The notes: generated by a model from the letters alone, not told the origin. A stretch of 64,000 nt of DNA from an uncultured delta proteobacterium (GCA_963715335.1 CAVQRZ010000033.1:25254-89253), one strand, 5' to 3'; shown: positions 26,930 through 35,757, counted from the stretch's first letter. Numbers and translations are program-made.

Positions 26930-29900
26930 ATGCTCAGAACGTTCCGCCATATTTCGCGCTTCGCGCGGCTCGGGACCGACCTTCGGGTCGGCACCCTGGC
27001 CGTGCTCTGCGCGCTGGCGGCCAACAGTATGTTCATCTTCAAACTCCAACCCGGTCGGTCGGTCGGTCGCGCAAGCGGCCGGCCGGCCCGTCGGCCCGAA
27101 GGGATGGCATTCTGCCGTAGCTTCGGGCGGGCGTTCGGTCTTTTAACGACCATTTTGGCCCTGATAGCAAGCCTGAATACAACCGCCCATGCGGCAACGC
27201 CGCCCGGCACACCGATCAACAATCAGGCCGTGCTTGACTACGCAATCGGCGGCGCGACACAACCAGCGGCACATTCGAACCTGGTCAGTTTCACCGTGCG
27301 TAGCCCGGCGCTGATTGAATTCCTGGCTTATGCGCCGACACTTCCTGCTGCCGAAGCGGTGCCTGTGCCTGACACCGACTACCGGAACGGTGGCAGCTTC
27401 GTGTCGATTCCGGCGCCACCGGAGACAGCCATCCAGCCGATGCCGTTGACCCCGGCCGAGCTTTACCACGGCGGCAACCCCTTCTACCTGCGCCTGACTG
27501 ACCTCGACCAGAACAGCGACCCGGCCACGGTCCAGACGGTATTAATCACCGTCACCTGCATTGAGACCGGCGATACAGAAGTTCTGCGGCTCACTGAGAG
27601 CGGTCCGGATACCGGTGTATTTACCGGCTACCTCCCCTCCATCAGCAGCGGTAACGCGGCGGCGGACGGGATGCTGTTCGTGATTCCGCAAGGCCGTGTC
27701 AGAGCGACCTATACCGACGTCTTCGACGGCACCGATTCAACGATCGCTGCAGCGCTGGTCGATCCCTACGGTTACGTCTTCGACAGCGCCACCGGCGACG
27801 CAGTAGATGGCGTCACCGTCACCCTGATCGACCTGGCCACCGGCCAGCCCGCCGCCACCATCGTCGGAGACAACGGTGCCCCCGGCTTCCCGGCTAGCAT
27901 TGTCACCGGCAGCAGCTTCGATTTCGGCGGGCTCACCTATAGCAACCCGCCAGGTGGTTACCGCTTCCCCTTCGTCCCGTCTGGCAGTTACCGTATGGTG
28001 GTCACCAATGCAGATAACTACACCGTGCCCTCGAGTCTTAGCGACAGTGAGTTGCAGAGTCGTTCCTGGTGGGCCAGCTCAGGCTATGTCGTCGGCGACG
28101 GCTGGCAGAGTGGCCAGTGGACAGGTGTGTTCAACGTCAACCCCGGCCCGGCGATTCGCCTCGATATCCCGGTTGATCCGCTGGTCACCTATCTCTGGCT
28201 GCAGAAAGATGTCAACCGCGACTACGCCTCGACCGGTGATTTCCTGCAATACACGCTGACCCTGGAAAACAATAACAAGCTCTCTGCGGCACCGGGAGTA
28301 ATAATCTCCGACCAGCTGCCGCTCGGCTTCCGCTACCAGAAGGGTTCGACCCATATTGCCGGTCGCAAACGGACCGATCCAACGGTCAGCCCTGACGGCC
28401 GGACTTTGACCTTCACACTCGCCGACATGCCTTCAGACAGCAGCATTGAAATCAGCTACGTGGTCGAGGTTGCAGCAGGCACGAAACTGGGCGAGGCCGT
28501 CAACCGCGCTCAGGCCAGCGACGGCAACGGTATCTACTCGAATATCGCCAGGGAGACGGTTGAGGTCCAAGACGCCTTCTTCCGCAACACGGTGATCCTC
28601 GTCGGGCGGGTCCTCGAAGGAGCCTGCGCCGAGGCGGACACAGTGCAAAGGGGCGTCCCCGGCGTCCGCGTCTACCTCGATGACGGCAGCTACGTGGTCA
28701 CGGATAAGGATGGCAAATACCATTTCGAAGGGGTCACACCAGGGCTGCATGTCGTTCAGGTCGATACGCTCACTCTGCCGGACGGCTATGAGATGACCTC
28801 CTGCGAGCAGAGCAGCCAGTTTGCCGGGAGGACCTTCTCCCAATTCGTCGACCTCCAGGGCGGAACCCTGTGGCGGGTCAACTTCTACACTGCGCGAAAA
28901 GCACCGCCAACCGGCGCGGCCGGGCTTGTACTCGAGGCCAGCATCGACAGACATCAGGCCAGCTTCAGCGTTGACTTGTCGGCAAAGACTATACCGCTCA
29001 GCAACCTCCGTACGACTATCATGCTCCCCACCGGGGCCCGTTATCTCGCCGGCACAGCAGCCCGCGACGGTCAGCCCATCGACGATCCGCAGATCTTCAA
29101 TGAGACTGTAACCTTTCGTTTCCCGGCACTGCTGGTCGATCAGCATAGCGTCATCACCTTCAATGCTGACATGACCGGGACGACCACAGGAGAGCTGCCG
29201 GCCAGGGCGCTACTGACCTTTGATACCTTGTCTGAGAAGAACCAGCGCACACCGTTGGCCGAGGTGCGCTTCCAGCGAACCAATGAAGAGCTGGTGATGA
29301 CACATCCCTCCAGCCCAGAACAGTCGATCGCTACGACTGGTCTGATGGTGGAAGGTGTCCCCGCACCGGTACAAAAGACTTTACCGCCGGCCGCTACTAC
29401 GCCGCCCAAACTTGACCAGAAGCTGCTGACAACGACCCCGCACGAGCGCAGTATCGTCTGGCCGGCAGAGGGTTTTGTGCCGGAGATTCCGAACATCGAG
29501 GTGATGGTCCAGTTCCAGCGTGGCGAACAGGTTGCACTGTTTCTCAATGACGAACCGGTCCCGGCGCTCAACTTCGACGAAAGCAAACAGGTTCCAAACA
29601 GCACCATGATGATCTCCAGCTGGGCCGGGGTTGACCTGCGCGACGGGCTCAACAGGCTCGAAGCGGTGCTGACAGACGCCGGCGGCAAAGAGGTGACCCG
29701 ACTGCGCCGCGACATCTGGTTCGTCACCATGGCGGAAAACCTGGAGTATTTTCCCGAGCAGTCGACGCTGGTCGCCGATGGCCTGAAACCGCCAACCTTT
29801 GCGATTCGTCTGACAGACCGTGACGGCCATCCACTGCGCCCGAAGCAACAAGTGCAGTTCCGGGTCTCGGCACCCTACCTTGCTCTGCACAACAATGGTG

Positions 29901-32528
29901 AGCGGACGCTCAATCCAGCGGAAGCACAGGGAAGCTTTGCAAGCGGTGCCGATGGCCTGGCTTACCTGCAGCTACAGCCAACTACCCAGGCTGGCGAAGT
30001 GACAGTGGCGATCATGATGCCGGATGGACCACAAGAGATCACCGCCTGGCTTAACCCGGCCCCTCGCGACTGGATCCTGGTCGGCTTCGCCGAAGGCACC
30101 GTCGGCCACAACACCATCAACGACAACCAGGTCAGTGCCGAAGAAGCCGGAATCGACGAGGACAGCTATAGCGATGGGCAGGTCAAGTTCTTCGCCAAGG
30201 GCGCGATCAAGGGGGATTGGCTGCTGACCCTGGCCTACGACTCCGACAAACCGGACCTCGATGGCGACAGCCTGTATCAGATTATCGACCCCGACACCTA
30301 CTACCCGCTCTACGGGGACGAAACCCAGCAGGGGTACGAAGCCTCCAGCGCCGAAAAACTCTACGTCAAGCTGGAGCGCGACCAGTTCTACGCGCTGTTC
30401 GGCGACATGGACACCGGCCTGAACCAGACCGTGCTGTCGCAGTACAGCCGCAGCATGACCGGCTTCAAGTCGGAGACTGCAGAACGAGCGCTTCACCTAC
30501 ACGGTTTTTGCCGCCGAAACCAAGCAGGCCTTCAGGAAGGACGAGATTCGCGGCGACGGTACGGCTGGCCGCTACTCCCTGTCGCAGTCGGAACTGGTGA
30601 TCAACTCGGAAGAAGTGGTCATCGAAACCCGCGACCGCTTCCACAATGAACTGATCGTCAAGGAAGAACGACTGTCACGCCACGTCGATTACGACATCGA
30701 CTACGATGCCGGCACTCTGTACTTCAAACGCCCGGTGCCGAGCAAAGATCAGGATTTCAACCCGGTCTTCATCGTGGTCCGCTACGAAACCAAGGCTTCA
30801 TCCAATACCAACCTGAATTATGGTGGCCGTGCCGCGCTCAGGGTACTCAACCAGCAGGTCGAGGTCGGCGGCAGTATGGTCCACGAAGAGAACGGCGACG
30901 AGAAAGGCGATCTATACGGTGTCGGACGTCACCGTCAGGCTGACTCCGCAGACCACTCTGCGCGCCGAGGTCGCCACCTCCGACATTGACTCCATTGATG
31001 ATGGGAGACCTCAGTGGCAACGCATACCTGGCCGAGCTCGAGCATCTCGGCGAGAGCTATGACCTCGTCGCCTGGTTCCGGCAACAGGATGCGGAGTTCG
31101 GTCTCGGGCAGCAGAATAGTGGCACTGAGGGGATGCGCACCTACGGCACACATGGCAGCTATCGCTTCAATCCGAGGTGGAGTCTGAGTCGGTGAGGCCT
31201 ACCACGAGGACAACCTCGATACCGATGCCACCCGCGACGTCGAGACCGTACAGGCACTGTACCAGACGGAACGCTACGGTCTGAACGCCGGTGTACGCGA
31301 GGCCCGTGACAAATTTGACGATGGCGAGACACAGACCAGCCGGCAGATGCTTGCCGGCGCCAATTGGAGCACACCGGACCGCAAGCTGACCCTGCGCGCC
31401 ACCCACGAGCAATCGCTGGAGGGGCAGGAACGAGAACAGTCGACTACCCGACCCGGACGATGCTCGGCGCCGATTACCAGCTGACCCGTAAGATCAGCCT
31501 CTTTGCCGAGCAGGAATTCACCTGGGGCGAGCAGGAGGATACCGAAGGGACGCGAGTCGGACTCAATGCCACGCCCTGGAAGGGTGGCGAAGTGCGCACC
31601 TCAGTGGAGCGCTACAACGTGGAGAACGCGGAACGGGTCTTCGCCCTGTTCGGGGTCGGCCAGGTCTGGCAGGTGACCCAGAAATGGAGCGTCGATCTGT
31701 CCATCGATCGCAGCTACACGGTTAAAAATGAGCCGGCCGGAGAGCGGGTCAACGGCAACGTGCCGACCGGCCAGCGGCGGCGACGACGATTTCACAGCCG
31801 TATCGGTCAGGCGCCGCCTATCGCACTGAAAGATGGTCGTGGTGGAACCGCCTGGAAACGCGCCAGGGGGACAGTGAGGACAAGGTTGGAATCAGCTCCG
31901 GCGTGGTTGGCTGATCTCCAGGAAGGGGTAGCGGTTCTCCGCCCGTTTGATGGCCTTCATCAACAATTCGCAAGACGGCAGCGACAGTGACGAGGAAGAA
32001 CATCACGCTGGCCCTGGCCTACCGCCCCGACCGGAGCCGCTGGATCCTCCTCGAACGTCTTGACCTGTCCCTCTACAACGAGAAACGGCGAGAGTGTGGA
32101 CAACGACAGCATGCGCATCGTCAATCATCTGCACGCCAACTTCCGTACCGCCGATCGCAAAGTGGCAGACGTCCTTTTACTACGGCCTCAAATATGTGCG
32201 TGAGAGTTACAACGGCGACCACTACGATGGTTACACCGATATGATCTCAGTCGAAACCCGCTACAACATCAACCGCAAGTGGGACATCGGCGTACACGGT
32301 GCACTCCTGCACTCATGGAACAGCAACCAGCTTGACCATAGTCTCGGCGCCGACATCGGCTATCTGGTCATGACCAACGCCTGGGTCAGTCTCGGTTATA
32401 ACGTGGTCGGCTTCGAAGACAAGGACTTCTCGGATGCCAACTACACCGCCGCAGGTCCCTACCTGCGATTCCGAGTCAAGTTCGATCAGCAATCGGTGCG
32501 TGAAGCGGCTGCATGGCTGGGTCGATAG
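26930..32528 (+). CDS. Very large outer-membrane protein: Ig/DUF11/SdrD-like domains plus a C-terminal beta-barrel (putative usher-like platform); several frameshifts from ~30480 to ~32160; start may be ATG 27104
   Basis: ORF 26930..30649 continues in ORFs 30597..30989, 30986..31195, 31364..31990, 31987..32244 and 32094..32528. Motifs GVPGVRVYLDDG...TDKDGKYHF, WLLTLAYDSDK, YYPLYGD, KLYVKLE, LGYNVVGFEDKDF...GPYLRFRVKFDQ. Confidence 0.75.
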
Positions 32529-32693
32529 ATCATGATACAATTAATGACCCCACCATCCCGGTGGTTTTTTATCCTGACTTCTTGACAGCCATCGTTTTCC
32601 GGATAGATTAGAAGATATTACTTTACATGCAGGGGACTGGTGGCCGTTACCTGACGAGCATCGCCTTCTGCTCTGTCGACAAAGGAGAATGCA

Positions 32694-33017
32694 ATGGATG
32701 GTAAAGAGCTGAAGAAGGTTCTCGCCAGCCTCGGCATCGCGACGCTGGTGACTGCCGTCGGGGCAATGGTTCCAGGCCACCTGCAGGCCGCAAGCGGCTG
32801 AGGTGGCAAAACAGACGGCACAGTTGGTGCCGGCAAAGCAGCCAGTTCAGGAGCCAGCGGCTGCAGCGGGAAAGATGCTGCGGCGACGAAGGAAGAGGTC
32901 TGTACTGAGAAGATGACCGAAGAAGAGTGTGCCAAGGCGATGGCGGAGAAGGCCAAGGCTGCTGCAGAGGCAGAAAAAAAACCGAGCGGAGGCAGTGGCT
33001 GAGGTGGTAAAAAATAA
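32694..33017 (+). CDS. sbtA: Selenocysteine-containing RiPP precursor, SbtA/selenobacteriocin-like (107 aa, 2 Sec)
   Basis: Manual translation: MDGKELKKVLASLGIATLVTAVGAMVPGHLQAASG-U-GGKTDGTVGAGKAASSGASG-C-SGKDAAATKEEVCTEKMTEEECAKAMAEKAKAAAEAEKKPSGGSG-U-GGKK*. TGA at 32799 and 33000 in frame; RBS AAAGGAG; radical SAM gene adjacent. Confidence 0.85.
32816..32832 (+). promoter_or_regulatory. SECIS-like hairpin for the first UGA
   Basis: CGGCAC-AGTTG-GTGCCG starting 14 nt after the UGA; G at loop position 2 followed by U. Confidence 0.7.
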
Positions 33018-33036
33018 GTGGTGCCGTGAGCACCAC
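33018..33036 (+). promoter_or_regulatory. SECIS-like hairpin for the second UGA, located in the 3' UTR
   Basis: GTGGTGC-CGTGA-GCACCAC starting 15 nt after the UGA and immediately after the TAA stop; G at loop position 2 followed by U. Confidence 0.7.
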
Positions 33037-33077
33037 AAAACTTCCTGACTGAAAAACTTTAAGGAATCACTTATGAT

Positions 33078-33116
33078 CGGATTGGCCTTGCGCATTGCCA
33101 GGGCCAATCCGTTTTT
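33078..33116 (+). terminator. Terminator-like hairpin between precursor and maturase genes
   Basis: CGGATTGGCCTTG-loop-CAGGGCCAATCCG-TTTTT. Confidence 0.65.
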
Positions 33117-33128
33117 CATGGTGGACCG

Positions 33129-34706
33129 ATGAGGCAAAAGATCAAGAAAATATTTCCGATGACATGCGGACACCTCCCGGAAGAAATCGGCAGAGACGGG
33201 TCCACCGCACTGATCTGGTCAGATGCCGACAGCTTCGTCGAGCAACTCATGCTGCTTGCGGAATCAGCTGATCTCCCTGCATACCTGCCCGACCTGGCGC
33301 GGGCGGAACGGGCTCGATATGAGCTGAACAACGGCAGCCGACAGATCCCTCTGGAACGGCCTGATGATTCGATTGAAATAAACCCTACACTGCTGCTGAT
33401 AGAAGTCGGCTGGCAGCCGCTGCTGGCCATGCTCGACGGCGCGGACCTCAAACCGGAGCCTGCCGCACAGATTCTGTTGTTCTGGCGGCACCCTGTAAAC
33501 GGCACAGCCGAGATGACCACGGCTGCACCAGCAGAGCTGCTGGCCCTGAAAATAGTGGCTGAACAACTTGAGCCGATTGATGTCGCGGCTAGCCACAACC
33601 AGCCCGTCGGTGTCATCGACGGAGCAATCGACAGCGCGATTCGCAAAGGCCTGCTGCTTTCGCCGACAACAAAGCTGCGCCGTGGGCTTTCAGCGGGCCA
33701 GATCACGGAGGTCTCAGCCGGAGCGCTTATCGAAGCCGAGGTATTCACTCTACAGTGGCATATCACTCATAGCTGTGACCTGCATTGCCGGCACTGTTAC
33801 GACCGCAGCGACCGCAGCGATGTCGACGTTGCGCAAGGGCTAAAAATCCTCGACCAGATGCGCCAGTTCTGCCGTGATCACCAGGTCGCCGGCCAGGTCT
33901 CATTTTCCGGCGGCAACCCATTCCTGCATCCAGGATTTCTGCAACTTTACCGGGCTGCTTTTGATCGAAACCTGAACCCGGCGATCCTAGGCAACCCGGT
34001 CAGCGAGGCGCAAATCGACGCTGTCATGGAGATTACCAAACCGGCTTTTTTCCAGGTCAGCCTCGAGGGGCTCGAGGAACACAATGACCACATCCGTGGT
34101 AAAGGCAGCTACCGGGCTGTTCTGGAATTTCTGGAAGTTCTGAAGCAGAAGCAGATCTACTCCATGGTCATGTTGACCCTGACCCGGGCCAATCTTGACC
34201 AGGTATTGCCCCTGGCAGAGAGGCTGCGAAACCGGGTTGACCTGTTCACCTATAACCGCCTGGCCATGGTCGGTGAAGGAGCCAACCTGGAGTCACCTCA
34301 GCCAGAGGAATATCACAGGTTCGTCATCGACTACCTCGAAGCCCGTCGCACCAATCCGATCCTGGCCCTCAAGGACAGCCTGATCAACATCGAGCTTGAG
34401 CGGCGACAGCAAGACCTCTTTGGCGGCTGCACCGGCTACGGCTGTGGTGCTGCCTTCAACTTTGTTTCTCTGCTCCCGGATGGGCAGGTGCACGCTTGCC
34501 GAAAATTCCCTTCGCCGATCGGCGACCTCAACAGGCAGACCCTTCACGAGATTTACCACTCACGGGATTCGCAAAAATATCGTGACGGATGCCATGAGTG
34601 CTCTTCCTGTCATCTGCGTCTTGCGTGCGGCGGCTGCCTGGCTGTGACTCACGGCTGGGGACGCGACCCCTTGCAAGAGAGAGATCCCGATTGCTTCATA
34701 ACATAA
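33129..34706 (+). CDS. sbtM: Radical SAM/SPASM peptide maturase, SbtM-like (thio/seleno-oxazole forming family)
   Basis: TLQWHITHSCDLHCRHC, FSGGNP, GGCTGYGCGAAFNF, CRKF, CxxCxxxxxCGGC...DPDC SPASM; N-terminal extension; directly downstream of the Sec/Cys precursor. Confidence 0.85.
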   Translation: MRQKIKKIFPMTCGHLPEEIGRDGSTALIWSDADSFVEQLMLLAESADLPAYLPDLARAERARYELNNGSRQIPLERPDDSIEINPTLLLIEVGWQPLLAMLDGADLKPEPAAQILLFWRHPVNGTAEMTTAAPAELLALKIVAEQLEPIDVAASHNQPVGVIDGAIDSAIRKGLLLSPTTKLRRGLSAGQITEVSAGALIEAEVFTLQWHITHSCDLHCRHCYDRSDRSDVDVAQGLKILDQMRQFCRDHQVAGQVSFSGGNPFLHPGFLQLYRAAFDRNLNPAILGNPVSEAQIDAVMEITKPAFFQVSLEGLEEHNDHIRGKGSYRAVLEFLEVLKQKQIYSMVMLTLTRANLDQVLPLAERLRNRVDLFTYNRLAMVGEGANLESPQPEEYHRFVIDYLEARRTNPILALKDSLINIELERRQQDLFGGCTGYGCGAAFNFVSLLPDGQVHACRKFPSPIGDLNRQTLHEIYHSRDSQKYRDGCHECSSCHLRLACGGCLAVTHGWGRDPLQERDPDCFIT

Positions 34707-34734: not shown

Positions 34735-35088
34735 CAGACTGTTGTCAAGTTCGGGTTGTGTTTAGAGTCAGCAACAAAGCGTGAGAGCTGCTCTGGAAGA
34801 CTGCATTGATAGTCATGCTTTTCAGGCTTTTCCCTCGTAAGTCTCCTGCGAGGAAGGCCCCCTGTAACGGGCCGGCTTCTTGAGCAGTATCGTTTGTTGA
34901 TGCCACAGAAATCTGGCAAAGGAGATGCCCTCCGCAAGGAGAAAGGCGTTTTTTGCATACTTTTTGTCGCCGTTTGGACAAAAAGTATGGCGTCTGGCGG
35001 GACGCGACCCGCCGGTTTTGAACTTGCCAATCGTCATCGCAACTTTTACAAACCCGCATCAATCCTGGTGAAGGGCTTATCACGAAGC
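34735..35088. mobile_element. Non-coding palindromic MITE-like element, short copy
   Basis: Shares GGAGATGCCCTCCGCAAGGAGAA...TTTTGCATACTTTT...CAAAAGTATGGCGTC.GGCGGGACGCGACCCGCCGGTTT and both end regions with 40580-41230. Confidence 0.6.
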
Positions 35089-35128
35089 AGAAGCGGGCCG
35101 GAAATTTTTCCGGCCCGCTTCTGCTTTT
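35086..35128. terminator. Bidirectional terminator between sbtM and ahpC
   Basis: AGCAGAAGCGGGCCGGAAA-t-TTTTCCGGCCCGCTTCTGCT. Confidence 0.8.
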
Positions 35129-35154: not shown

Positions 35155-35757
35155 TCACAGTGAATCGGCCTTGTTTTTCAGATAAGAGGCAACGCCGGCT
35201 GCATCAGGCTTCATCCCCTCTTCTCCCTTGCTCCACCCCGCCGGGCAAACCTCACCATACTTCTCGGTAAACTGGAGCGCGTCGATCATACGCAGCATTT
35301 CGTCAACGTTGCGGCCAAGCGGCAGGTCATTGACGACCTGGTGGTGAACCTTGCCGTCTTTGCCGATCAGAAAAGAGCCGCGGAAGGCAACCCCGGCCGC
35401 TTCGAATTCGACATCATAAGCGCGGCAGATCTCGTGCTTGACATCCGCCACCAGGGGATAGGCAACCGCACCGATACCCCCTTCGTCAACCGGGGTGTTG
35501 CGCCACGCAACATGGGTAAACTGTGAGTCGATGGAGCAGCCGATCACCTGTACATCACGGCTTTCAAATTCCTTGATCCGCTTGGAAAATGCGATCAATT
35601 CGGTCGGGCAGACGAACGTGAAATCAAGGGGGTAGAAAAACAGCACAACATACTTGCCCCGGTAGTCTGCGAGGCTGAACTTGGGATTAATGCTACCGTC
35701 AGCCATAACGGCTGCCGCGGTAAAATCAGGGGCCTGCTTGCCAACCAAAACACTCAT
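35155..35757 (-). CDS. ahpC: 2-Cys peroxiredoxin (AhpC/TsaA)
   Basis: FFYPLDFTFVCPTE and GEVCPAGW motifs. Confidence 0.95.
   Translation of the reverse strand: MSVLVGKQAPDFTAAAVMADGSINPKFSLADYRGKYVVLFFYPLDFTFVCPTELIAFSKRIKEFESRDVQVIGCSIDSQFTHVAWRNTPVDEGGIGAVAYPLVADVKHEICRAYDVEFEAAGVAFRGSFLIGKDGKVHHQVVNDLPLGRNVDEMLRMIDALQFTEKYGEVCPAGWSKGEEGMKPDAAGVASYLKNKADSL

Follow-up and report, generated by a model that had tools for sequence, protein, structure and literature searches.

What is encoded by a short gene that is crossed by two in-frame TGA codons, and what its product does after modification by the radical S-adenosylmethionine (SAM) enzyme of the next gene, is the question raised by the sbtA-sbtM locus of an uncultured delta proteobacterium. 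The locus lies in a stretch of 64,000 nucleotides (GCA_963715335.1 CAVQRZ010000033.1:25254-89253), referred to here as the window, and all positions are counted from its first letter. To the question of the biological role of the SbtA/SbtM system, the homology of the maturase SbtM to PME1, the partner protein of the MNIO enzymes that make copper-binding captophorins, offers a concrete and testable answer. It is proposed here, at what we consider even chances, that the product would be an exported, oxygen-independent (anaerobic) selenium counterpart of the captophorins, binding soft metals such as Cu(I).

With TGA read as selenocysteine (Sec), sbtA is a frame encoding a precursor of 107 residues at 32694-33017 (+), closed by a TAA at 33015. 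Read with genetic code table 11 it gives only 35 residues, and it is missing from the ordinary list of open reading frames (ORFs). The initial annotation had pointed to an unlisted ORF with two TGAs in one identical context, and both were recovered, at codon 36 (32799-32801, core 1) and codon 103 (33000-33002, core 3), each within Ser-Gly-[TGA]-Gly-Gly-Lys. The assignment to the SbtA/SbtM family made at the same time also stood, as the sbtA product scores 39.3 bits against TIGR04081, the SbtA family (cut-off 30.5), and the downstream SPASM radical SAM gene is sbtM (33129-34706, +), which begins 111 nucleotides after sbtA and encodes 525 residues scoring 652 bits against TIGR04082 (cut-off 350). 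Each gene is present in one copy in the genome, and their arrangement here is that of an ordinary member of the described family. A host within the Geobacteraceae is unsupported, the named relatives being only 'uncultured delta proteobacterium' and 'Desulfuromusa sp.'.

For comparison 65 SbtM loci were examined. These loci are kin and not independent of each other; the counts are descriptive and carry no statistical test. L109, which has a frameshifted precursor, enters none of the counts, and for nine precursors the end was placed manually at a TGA stop. SbtM occurs in 15 of the 61 near relatives, 27 of 185 genomes of the order and 34 of 401 genomes sampled across the phylum. The precursor leader was located at 59 of the 65 loci, and five of the other six have short or missing upstream sequence, which is not so for L112.

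Both TGAs of sbtA are likely to be read as Sec, to judge from their sequence context, their conservation and the hairpins behind them. An upper stem-loop of the selenocysteine insertion sequence (SECIS) type, with 6 base pairs and a 5-nucleotide loop, lies 20 nucleotides past codon 36 (32816-32832, +), and a second one, with 7 base pairs and a 5-nucleotide loop, lies 22 nucleotides past codon 103 and wholly beyond the TAA (33018-33036, +). The two are alike in shape with G in the second loop position, and both fit the bacterial SECIS model of PMC13188914. The 50-nucleotide folds after the TGAs have z values of -2.84 and -2.34, against -0.82 after Cys57. Rfam gave no match at the gathering level. 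Among the relatives a hairpin of this type was detected behind 139 of the 154 TGAs at cores and behind 1 of the 48 Cys codons at cores, as against 77 of 2000 TGAs drawn at random from the genome, with a loop pattern that had been fixed after the related hairpins were inspected; under the published criteria of PMC13188914 the counts are 135 of 154, 7 of 48 and 317 of 2000. Of the 49 related precursors whose stop comes within 8 codons of the last Sec, 34 have the stem of that Sec at the stop or beyond it. Because the family cut-offs are passed, the TGAs are kept in relatives and the SECIS-type hairpins track them, the TGA-bearing frame goes beyond chance. The genome also carries the Sec machinery that the initial annotation had suggested looking for, namely tRNA-Sec (selC), selA, selB and selD, the last with an in-frame TGA of its own, and selA is present in 172 of the 185 genomes of the order.

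That the TGAs are true stops and the 35-residue peptide is the only product is therefore a reading to be weighed, and it is highly improbable. Read-through of sbtA is deduced from sequence, which leaves some room for it, but the frame and the cores continue in relatives past the first TGA with both TGAs kept, TGA and Cys codons take each other's place at aligned cores, the hairpins follow TGA and not TGC, and the Sec machinery is in the genome. If both codons are read as Sec, sbtA would show how bacteria place several Sec in one short gene, with a hairpin for each Sec and the last one beyond the stop.

Some variants of this layout were seen among the relatives. In L098, L103, L107, L115, L105 and L095 paired Sec codons, 3 or 5 codons apart, apparently share one hairpin, which in the 5-codon cases lies at about +33 to +36 from the first Sec and +18 to +21 from the second. 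In eight loci (L084, L085, L086, L126, L127, L091, L092 and L093) a TAA or TAG stands directly after the last Sec codon, so that Sec would be the C-terminal residue, and the hairpin is still present. In our genome selA was met twice, with small indels and a TGA at C6:149754-151046 and intact at C40:6614-7981, on overlapping contigs; this fits mixed strains in the assembly.

The third motif seen by the initial annotation, Cys57 (TGC, 32862-32864) after Ser-Gly, has no SECIS in the window and is Sec with SECIS in some relatives. At core 2 of the 12 loci of its own taxonomic family there are nine Cys and three Sec, with a hairpin at 3 of 3 Sec and 1 of 9 Cys, and Cys57 is a true third core since codon and SECIS change together among relatives. 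That the layout of this precursor is special is not supported by the comparison. Among 60 precursors with cores at least two Sec are present in 53, at least three Sec in 31 and at least three cores in 48, while two Sec with one Cys occur in 11 and all-Cys precursors in three. Moreover, two or more Sec per SbtA have already been published (PMC13188914 table; PMC9204691), and the 2026 selenoproteome table lists TIGR04081 with the motif SGUG and 2 Sec (PMC13188914).

These counts bear on the possibility that SbtA serves as a selenium store or sink, that is, an abundant, disordered multi-Sec peptide in whose stable rings selenium would be locked away from the cytoplasm. The presence of up to five Sec in a related precursor, the 31 precursors with three or more, the low-complexity spacers that vary freely in charge and length, and the sbtA RNA contigs of four sediment runs would all suit such a store. 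It is nevertheless improbable, as the change from Sec to Cys with loss of the SECIS at core 2 in this lineage and the all-Cys precursors lower the selenium and keep the core, and no uptake gene is nearby among the neighbours scanned (115 first and 98 of 104 second neighbours, 213 flanking ORFs together).

Other irregular precursors were noted. The last core is deleted in L082 (G006), the middle cores of L087 (G083) are without Sec or Cys, and a frameshift precedes the last core in L021 (G003). Two precursor genes are found in L097, L105, L116 and L119, the precursor stands downstream of sbtM in L100, L104, L110, L117 and L120, and G245 has two sbtM loci.

The structure model of SbtM has a predicted local distance difference test score (pLDDT) of 91, and Cys216, Cys220 and Cys223 (CxxxCxxC) together with eight Cys of the SPASM region, 11 in all, are invariant in 51 SbtM sequences. 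In front of this catalytic part, residues 1-181 (33129-33671, +) form a domain homologous to PME1 (HvfC/BufC), that is, to the C-terminal half of DUF2063 plus an RRE, as is shown by profile, BLAST and structure comparisons that agree. The HvfC model is matched by 12 of 49 SbtM N-terminal domains (best E 3e-6), and DUF2063 weakly by four of the 49. Run against 1.84 billion representatives, the SbtM N-terminal profile gave 487 matches; among the best 150 of these, 43 continue into an SbtM catalytic part, 86 are unassignable, being mostly short and probably fragments, and 21 are stand-alone proteins of 234-260 residues with an extra N-terminal part. HvfC is matched at E<=1e-8 by 17 of these 21, all under its cut-off. 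Nine of them were looked up by name, and two clusters, from Corallococcus and Myxococcus, are named HvfC/BufC or DUF2063, one is a planctomycete DUF2063 protein and the rest are unnamed or hypothetical. Residues 1-185 of the window's SbtM align to all 21 at 25-36% identity. The profile-profile match between the SbtM N-terminal domains and the stand-alone PME1 set has an E of 1.5e-42, which is partly circular because the stand-alone set was picked by the SbtM N-terminal profile.

The structure comparison leads to the same family. Residues 1-181 of the SbtM model match NGO1945 (3DEE_A) with Z 12.5 and a root-mean-square deviation of 3.6 A over 163 residues, and the TglI-containing 8HCI_C with Z 11.2; these are the only entries covering residues 1-181 among the 50 structural matches listed. 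By sequence the SbtM N-terminal profile found none of the solved structures, and 3DEE is reached only by the stand-alone PME1 profile and by the SbtM model. The gonophorin cluster has 3DEE as its PME1 (PMC12668002).

PME1 is described as a dedicated MNIO partner, nearly always adjoining the MNIO (PMC12668002), and the stand-alone relatives found here are placed in the same way. In three of three metagenome loci of one of them (L130-L132) the order is precursor, MNIO, PME1, and the precursors are of the lipoprotein type with repeated Gly/Ser-Cys-Gly cores; no Pfam family matches these three. In addition, 10 of 10 MNIO loci fetched from the host's own phylum have a partner that scores 9-60 bits on the SbtM profile. 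The top-scoring one (L140) adjoins an export-type precursor with repeated Gly/Ser-Cys-Gly cores, and five weaker partners adjoin precursors that look bufferin-like by eye. Captophorins are made by MNIO and PME1, carry 5-thiooxazoles and bind copper, and for bufferin, oxazolin and fontiphorin the papers give the SbtM-type ring together with copper binding (PMC11626156, PMC12668002, bioRxiv 10.64898/2026.06.05.730506). Bufferins are stress-induced, and bufferin is exported by the Sec pathway, retains one disulfide and has a dissociation constant for Cu(I) of about 7e-20 M (PMC11626156). Oxazolin carries its core in several copies and, separately, a disulfide, and MNIOs require oxygen (bioRxiv 10.64898/2026.06.05.730506). 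MNIO (PF05114) was found in 0 of the 185 genomes of the order, including our own, with a positive Caulobacter control.

According to the published chemistry of the family SbtM acts on Gly-Cys/Sec, where the removal of four hydrogens gives an oxazole ring that bears a free thiol or selenol; this -4 Da thio(seleno)oxazole formation was demonstrated for another family member (PMC9204691) and is restated in PMC11002830 and PMC13638132. The following course can be proposed for the window. Both TGAs would be read as Sec with the machinery and hairpins described above, and the PME1-like domain may hold the precursor in the cytoplasm and offer each core to the radical SAM site, where seleno- and thio-oxazoles would be formed at the three Gly-Sec/Cys cores. 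Signal peptidase would then cut after Ala32, and a peptide of 75 residues would reach the periplasm and close a disulfide between Cys70 and Cys79. There, by analogy with the captophorins, two selenolates and one thiolate could chelate Cu(I) or another soft metal together with the ring nitrogens, in buffering or detoxification. A PME1-type domain joined to a radical SAM enzyme with the same ring as its product would mean that one substrate-presenting module serves two unrelated catalysts, an oxic and an anoxic one.

The export step draws on the leader, residues 1-32 (32694-32789, +), which is predicted to be a Sec-pathway signal peptide with cleavage after Ala32 by pattern. The signal-peptide-like leader of the initial annotation is in this way supported as a predicted export-type leader. 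Its hydrophobic core reaches a best 12-residue Kyte-Doolittle mean of 2.2, and Ala32 is nearly invariant among related SbtA leaders. The pattern argues for an export signal because the -1 position is Ala or Gly in 39 of the 43 precursors that fit the cleavage pattern and leaders of the lipoprotein type occur in 15 of 62 related precursors. The leader may double as the recognition site of the maturase. Homology with the leaders of MNIO-type precursors is not established, because the SbtA leader profile does not detect those precursors.

The leaders and neighbours also bear on the older name 'selenobacteriocin', which stands in the selenoproteome table (PMC13188914) and would make the product an antibacterial peptide. 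The patchy distribution (27 of 185 genomes of the order) suits that name, but no exporter, protease or immunity gene is conserved beside sbtM in the 65 loci, the lipoprotein-type leaders would anchor the product to its producer, and the spacers vary freely in charge and length. An antibacterial function is very improbable.

Several observations weigh against a metal-binding captophorin counterpart. The window's SbtM N-terminal domain has no direct HvfC or DUF2063 match in family scans, none of the 49 SbtM N-terminal domains scanned reaches the HvfC cut-off, and a fold of the PME1 type is used by TglI as well, outside any thiooxazole system. No metal-related neighbour is conserved in the 213 flanking ORFs, among which are single cupredoxin-like, MerR-type and MauE/DoxX genes; the CusB-like gene in L121 adjoins an MFS pump, and the genome's own genes of the CopA and CusA types stand on contigs other than this one. 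A link to mercury was rejected, hgcA being present in 13 of 27 SbtM-positive and 88 of 158 SbtM-negative genomes of the order (p 0.53). Mutual exclusion of MNIO and SbtM in the phylum is not significant, since the zero overlap between MNIO (8 of 401) and SbtM (34 of 401) is at chance level (0.68 expected). Export is predicted from a pattern, the sbtA promoter looks constitutive, whereas bufferins respond to stress, and no operator motif shared with it was found in the 59 upstream regions compared. Moreover, Sec in proteins commonly serves redox catalysis.

Another explanation shares the biosynthesis and the export, but the product would be a periplasmic redox buffer or peroxide scavenger whose aromatic selenols cycle through diselenide or selenyl-sulfide states. 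Replacement of sulfur by selenium suits redox chemistry, a promoter that appears constitutive would agree with it, and a peroxiredoxin gene (35155-35757) lies downstream of sbtM, a place that it has in seven own-family loci. However, the peroxiredoxin gene is to be taken as plain synteny, because it is convergent with sbtM and confined to close kin, and no reductase is conserved among the neighbours scanned. Captophorin clusters have also been linked to oxidative stress (PMC12668002), but the characterised peptides with the SbtM-type ring bind copper (PMC11626156, PMC12668002, bioRxiv 10.64898/2026.06.05.730506), and the all-Cys precursors (3 of 60) speak against a selenium-based redox role. 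A redox buffer is unlikely, though it deserves to be kept in mind, and the PME1 homology of SbtM would favour metal binding over it.

How a selenium counterpart of the captophorins could have arisen is a related question. In a tree built quickly and without bootstrap from 59 rows, which include 25 of the 49 SbtM domains, SbtM falls on one branch with support 90, and SbtM together with the repeat-type PME1s is set against nine other partners with support 100. This suggests a direction for the catalyst swap and does not show it, because the sampling is biased toward SbtM-like PME1s. It is tentatively put forward, with chances somewhat under even, that SbtA/SbtM is an anaerobic selenium branch of a repeat-core captophorin cluster, in which PME1 and the exported precursor would have been kept, the oxygen-dependent MNIO replaced by a fused radical SAM/SPASM domain with the same ring as its product, and the cores then recoded to Sec, so that sediment anaerobes would have a periplasmic selenolate to chelate Cu(I) and other soft metals.

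The spacer between cores 2 and 3 contains a further pair of cysteines, Cys70-x8-Cys79 (32901-32930, +), outside the core context. The Cys-x8/9-Cys pair occurs in 12 of 12 precursors of the host's own taxonomic family and in 0 of 50 others, and after export it would likely form an unmodified disulfide, by analogy with bufferin and oxazolin. The structure model of SbtA, of low confidence overall (mean pLDDT 52), has a helix at residues 76-95. The initial annotation had placed the modification sites at opposite ends of a helix, which is right for Cys57 and Sec103, the residues flanking it, and not for Sec36, which lies further up in a low-confidence region. A multidentate geometry spanning the helix is no general principle of the family, because the helix with its Cys pair is confined to the own taxonomic family.

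Concerning expression, a sigma-70-like promoter of sbtA is predicted at 32582-32609 (+; 10/12 match, 16-nucleotide spacer). The scan gave three sites against 1.0 +/- 0.9 in shuffles, which is weak alone, and a similar -35 hexamer can be seen by eye upstream of most precursors at order level. A Shine-Dalgarno-like site lies at 32681-32687 (+), with purine-rich counterparts at the matching position in relatives. Between sbtA and sbtM there is a terminator-like hairpin with a T run (33078-33111 or, more widely taken, 33078-33116, +; z -3.9), which would shift the balance of RNA from the maturase toward the precursor. Contigs from four metatranscriptome runs on sediment match parts of sbtA (32637-33063, 90-99% alike) and are unchanged at both TGAs; they show presence only, because they were retrieved from RNA libraries with sbtA as the query. 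The earliest starts at 32637, and those of three runs stop at 33049-33063, a little ahead of the hairpin, a weak hint of a discrete sbtA transcript. In one run sbtM is also matched by two short contigs, each showing a single difference, and the uncovered stretches, which make up most of sbtM, carry no information on expression level. An ATCG-N7-CGAT palindrome, absent from the window, precedes sbtA in 11 of the 59 loci compared and could be either a hairpin of the 5' untranslated region or a regulator site. A short stretch at 34897-34964 attracts a large number of unrelated RNA contigs whose ends are loose, and it is probably a small dispersed repeat.

Between sbtM and the peroxiredoxin gene there is a long two-way terminator-like hairpin (35084-35127). 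On the other side of the locus a large DUF11/adhesin-like gene (26930-32528) is broken over several frames, probably by assembly errors because a relative (L090) has an open frame of 1801 residues there. Four clusters of neighbouring ORFs (2, 3, 6 and 34) proved to be antisense shadows of sbtA or sbtM and were set aside. Elsewhere in the genome HgcA, of mercury methylation, is encoded at C21:35880-36857, as in 101 of the 185 genomes of the order.

No mention of a link between SbtM and PME1 turned up in the searchable papers or in two supplementary files of PMC13097082, subscription papers and bioRxiv supplements being outside reach, and PMC4289311 and PMC12452194 gave no passage on the SbtA/SbtM system. 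The PME1 homology of SbtM thus goes beyond the searchable literature. The primary papers on the family, those of Haft and Basu in 2011 and of Lewis et al. in 2021, may already describe an RRE in SbtM or precursors with several cores.

Compared with known systems, the locus agrees with the SbtA/SbtM family on every feature compared here, in that both cut-offs are passed, the genes are adjacent and the cores are Ser-Gly-Sec-Gly with SECIS hairpins. It departs from it in a third core that is Cys instead of Sec, as in 11 of 60 precursors, and in the spacer pair of its own taxonomic family, both of which are minor variations. The catalytic part of SbtM has as its top matches the RRE-bearing radical SAM/SPASM maturases SkfB, SuiB and the CteB-type 5WGG, together with anSME (Z 23-25), whereas identity to these is only 15-18% and in the wide search they leave residues 1-181 uncovered. 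With the captophorins bufferin, oxazolin, fontiphorin and gonophorin the system would share the 5-thiooxazole, according to the papers, a precursor with repeated cores and a predicted signal peptide, and a separate disulfide, which bufferin and oxazolin have; it also shares the homologous PME1-type domain identified here. The catalyst is different, a separate oxygen-dependent MNIO in captophorin clusters and a radical SAM/SPASM enzyme fused to the PME1-like domain in SbtM, and this domain lacks the first 40-55 residues of PME1. The SbtA cores are mostly Sec, sbtM has no conserved DoxX or ECF-sigma neighbour, and metal binding would be carried over from the captophorins by analogy. Lacking an MNIO, the SbtA/SbtM system is by definition no captophorin system, although it likely works in the same way.

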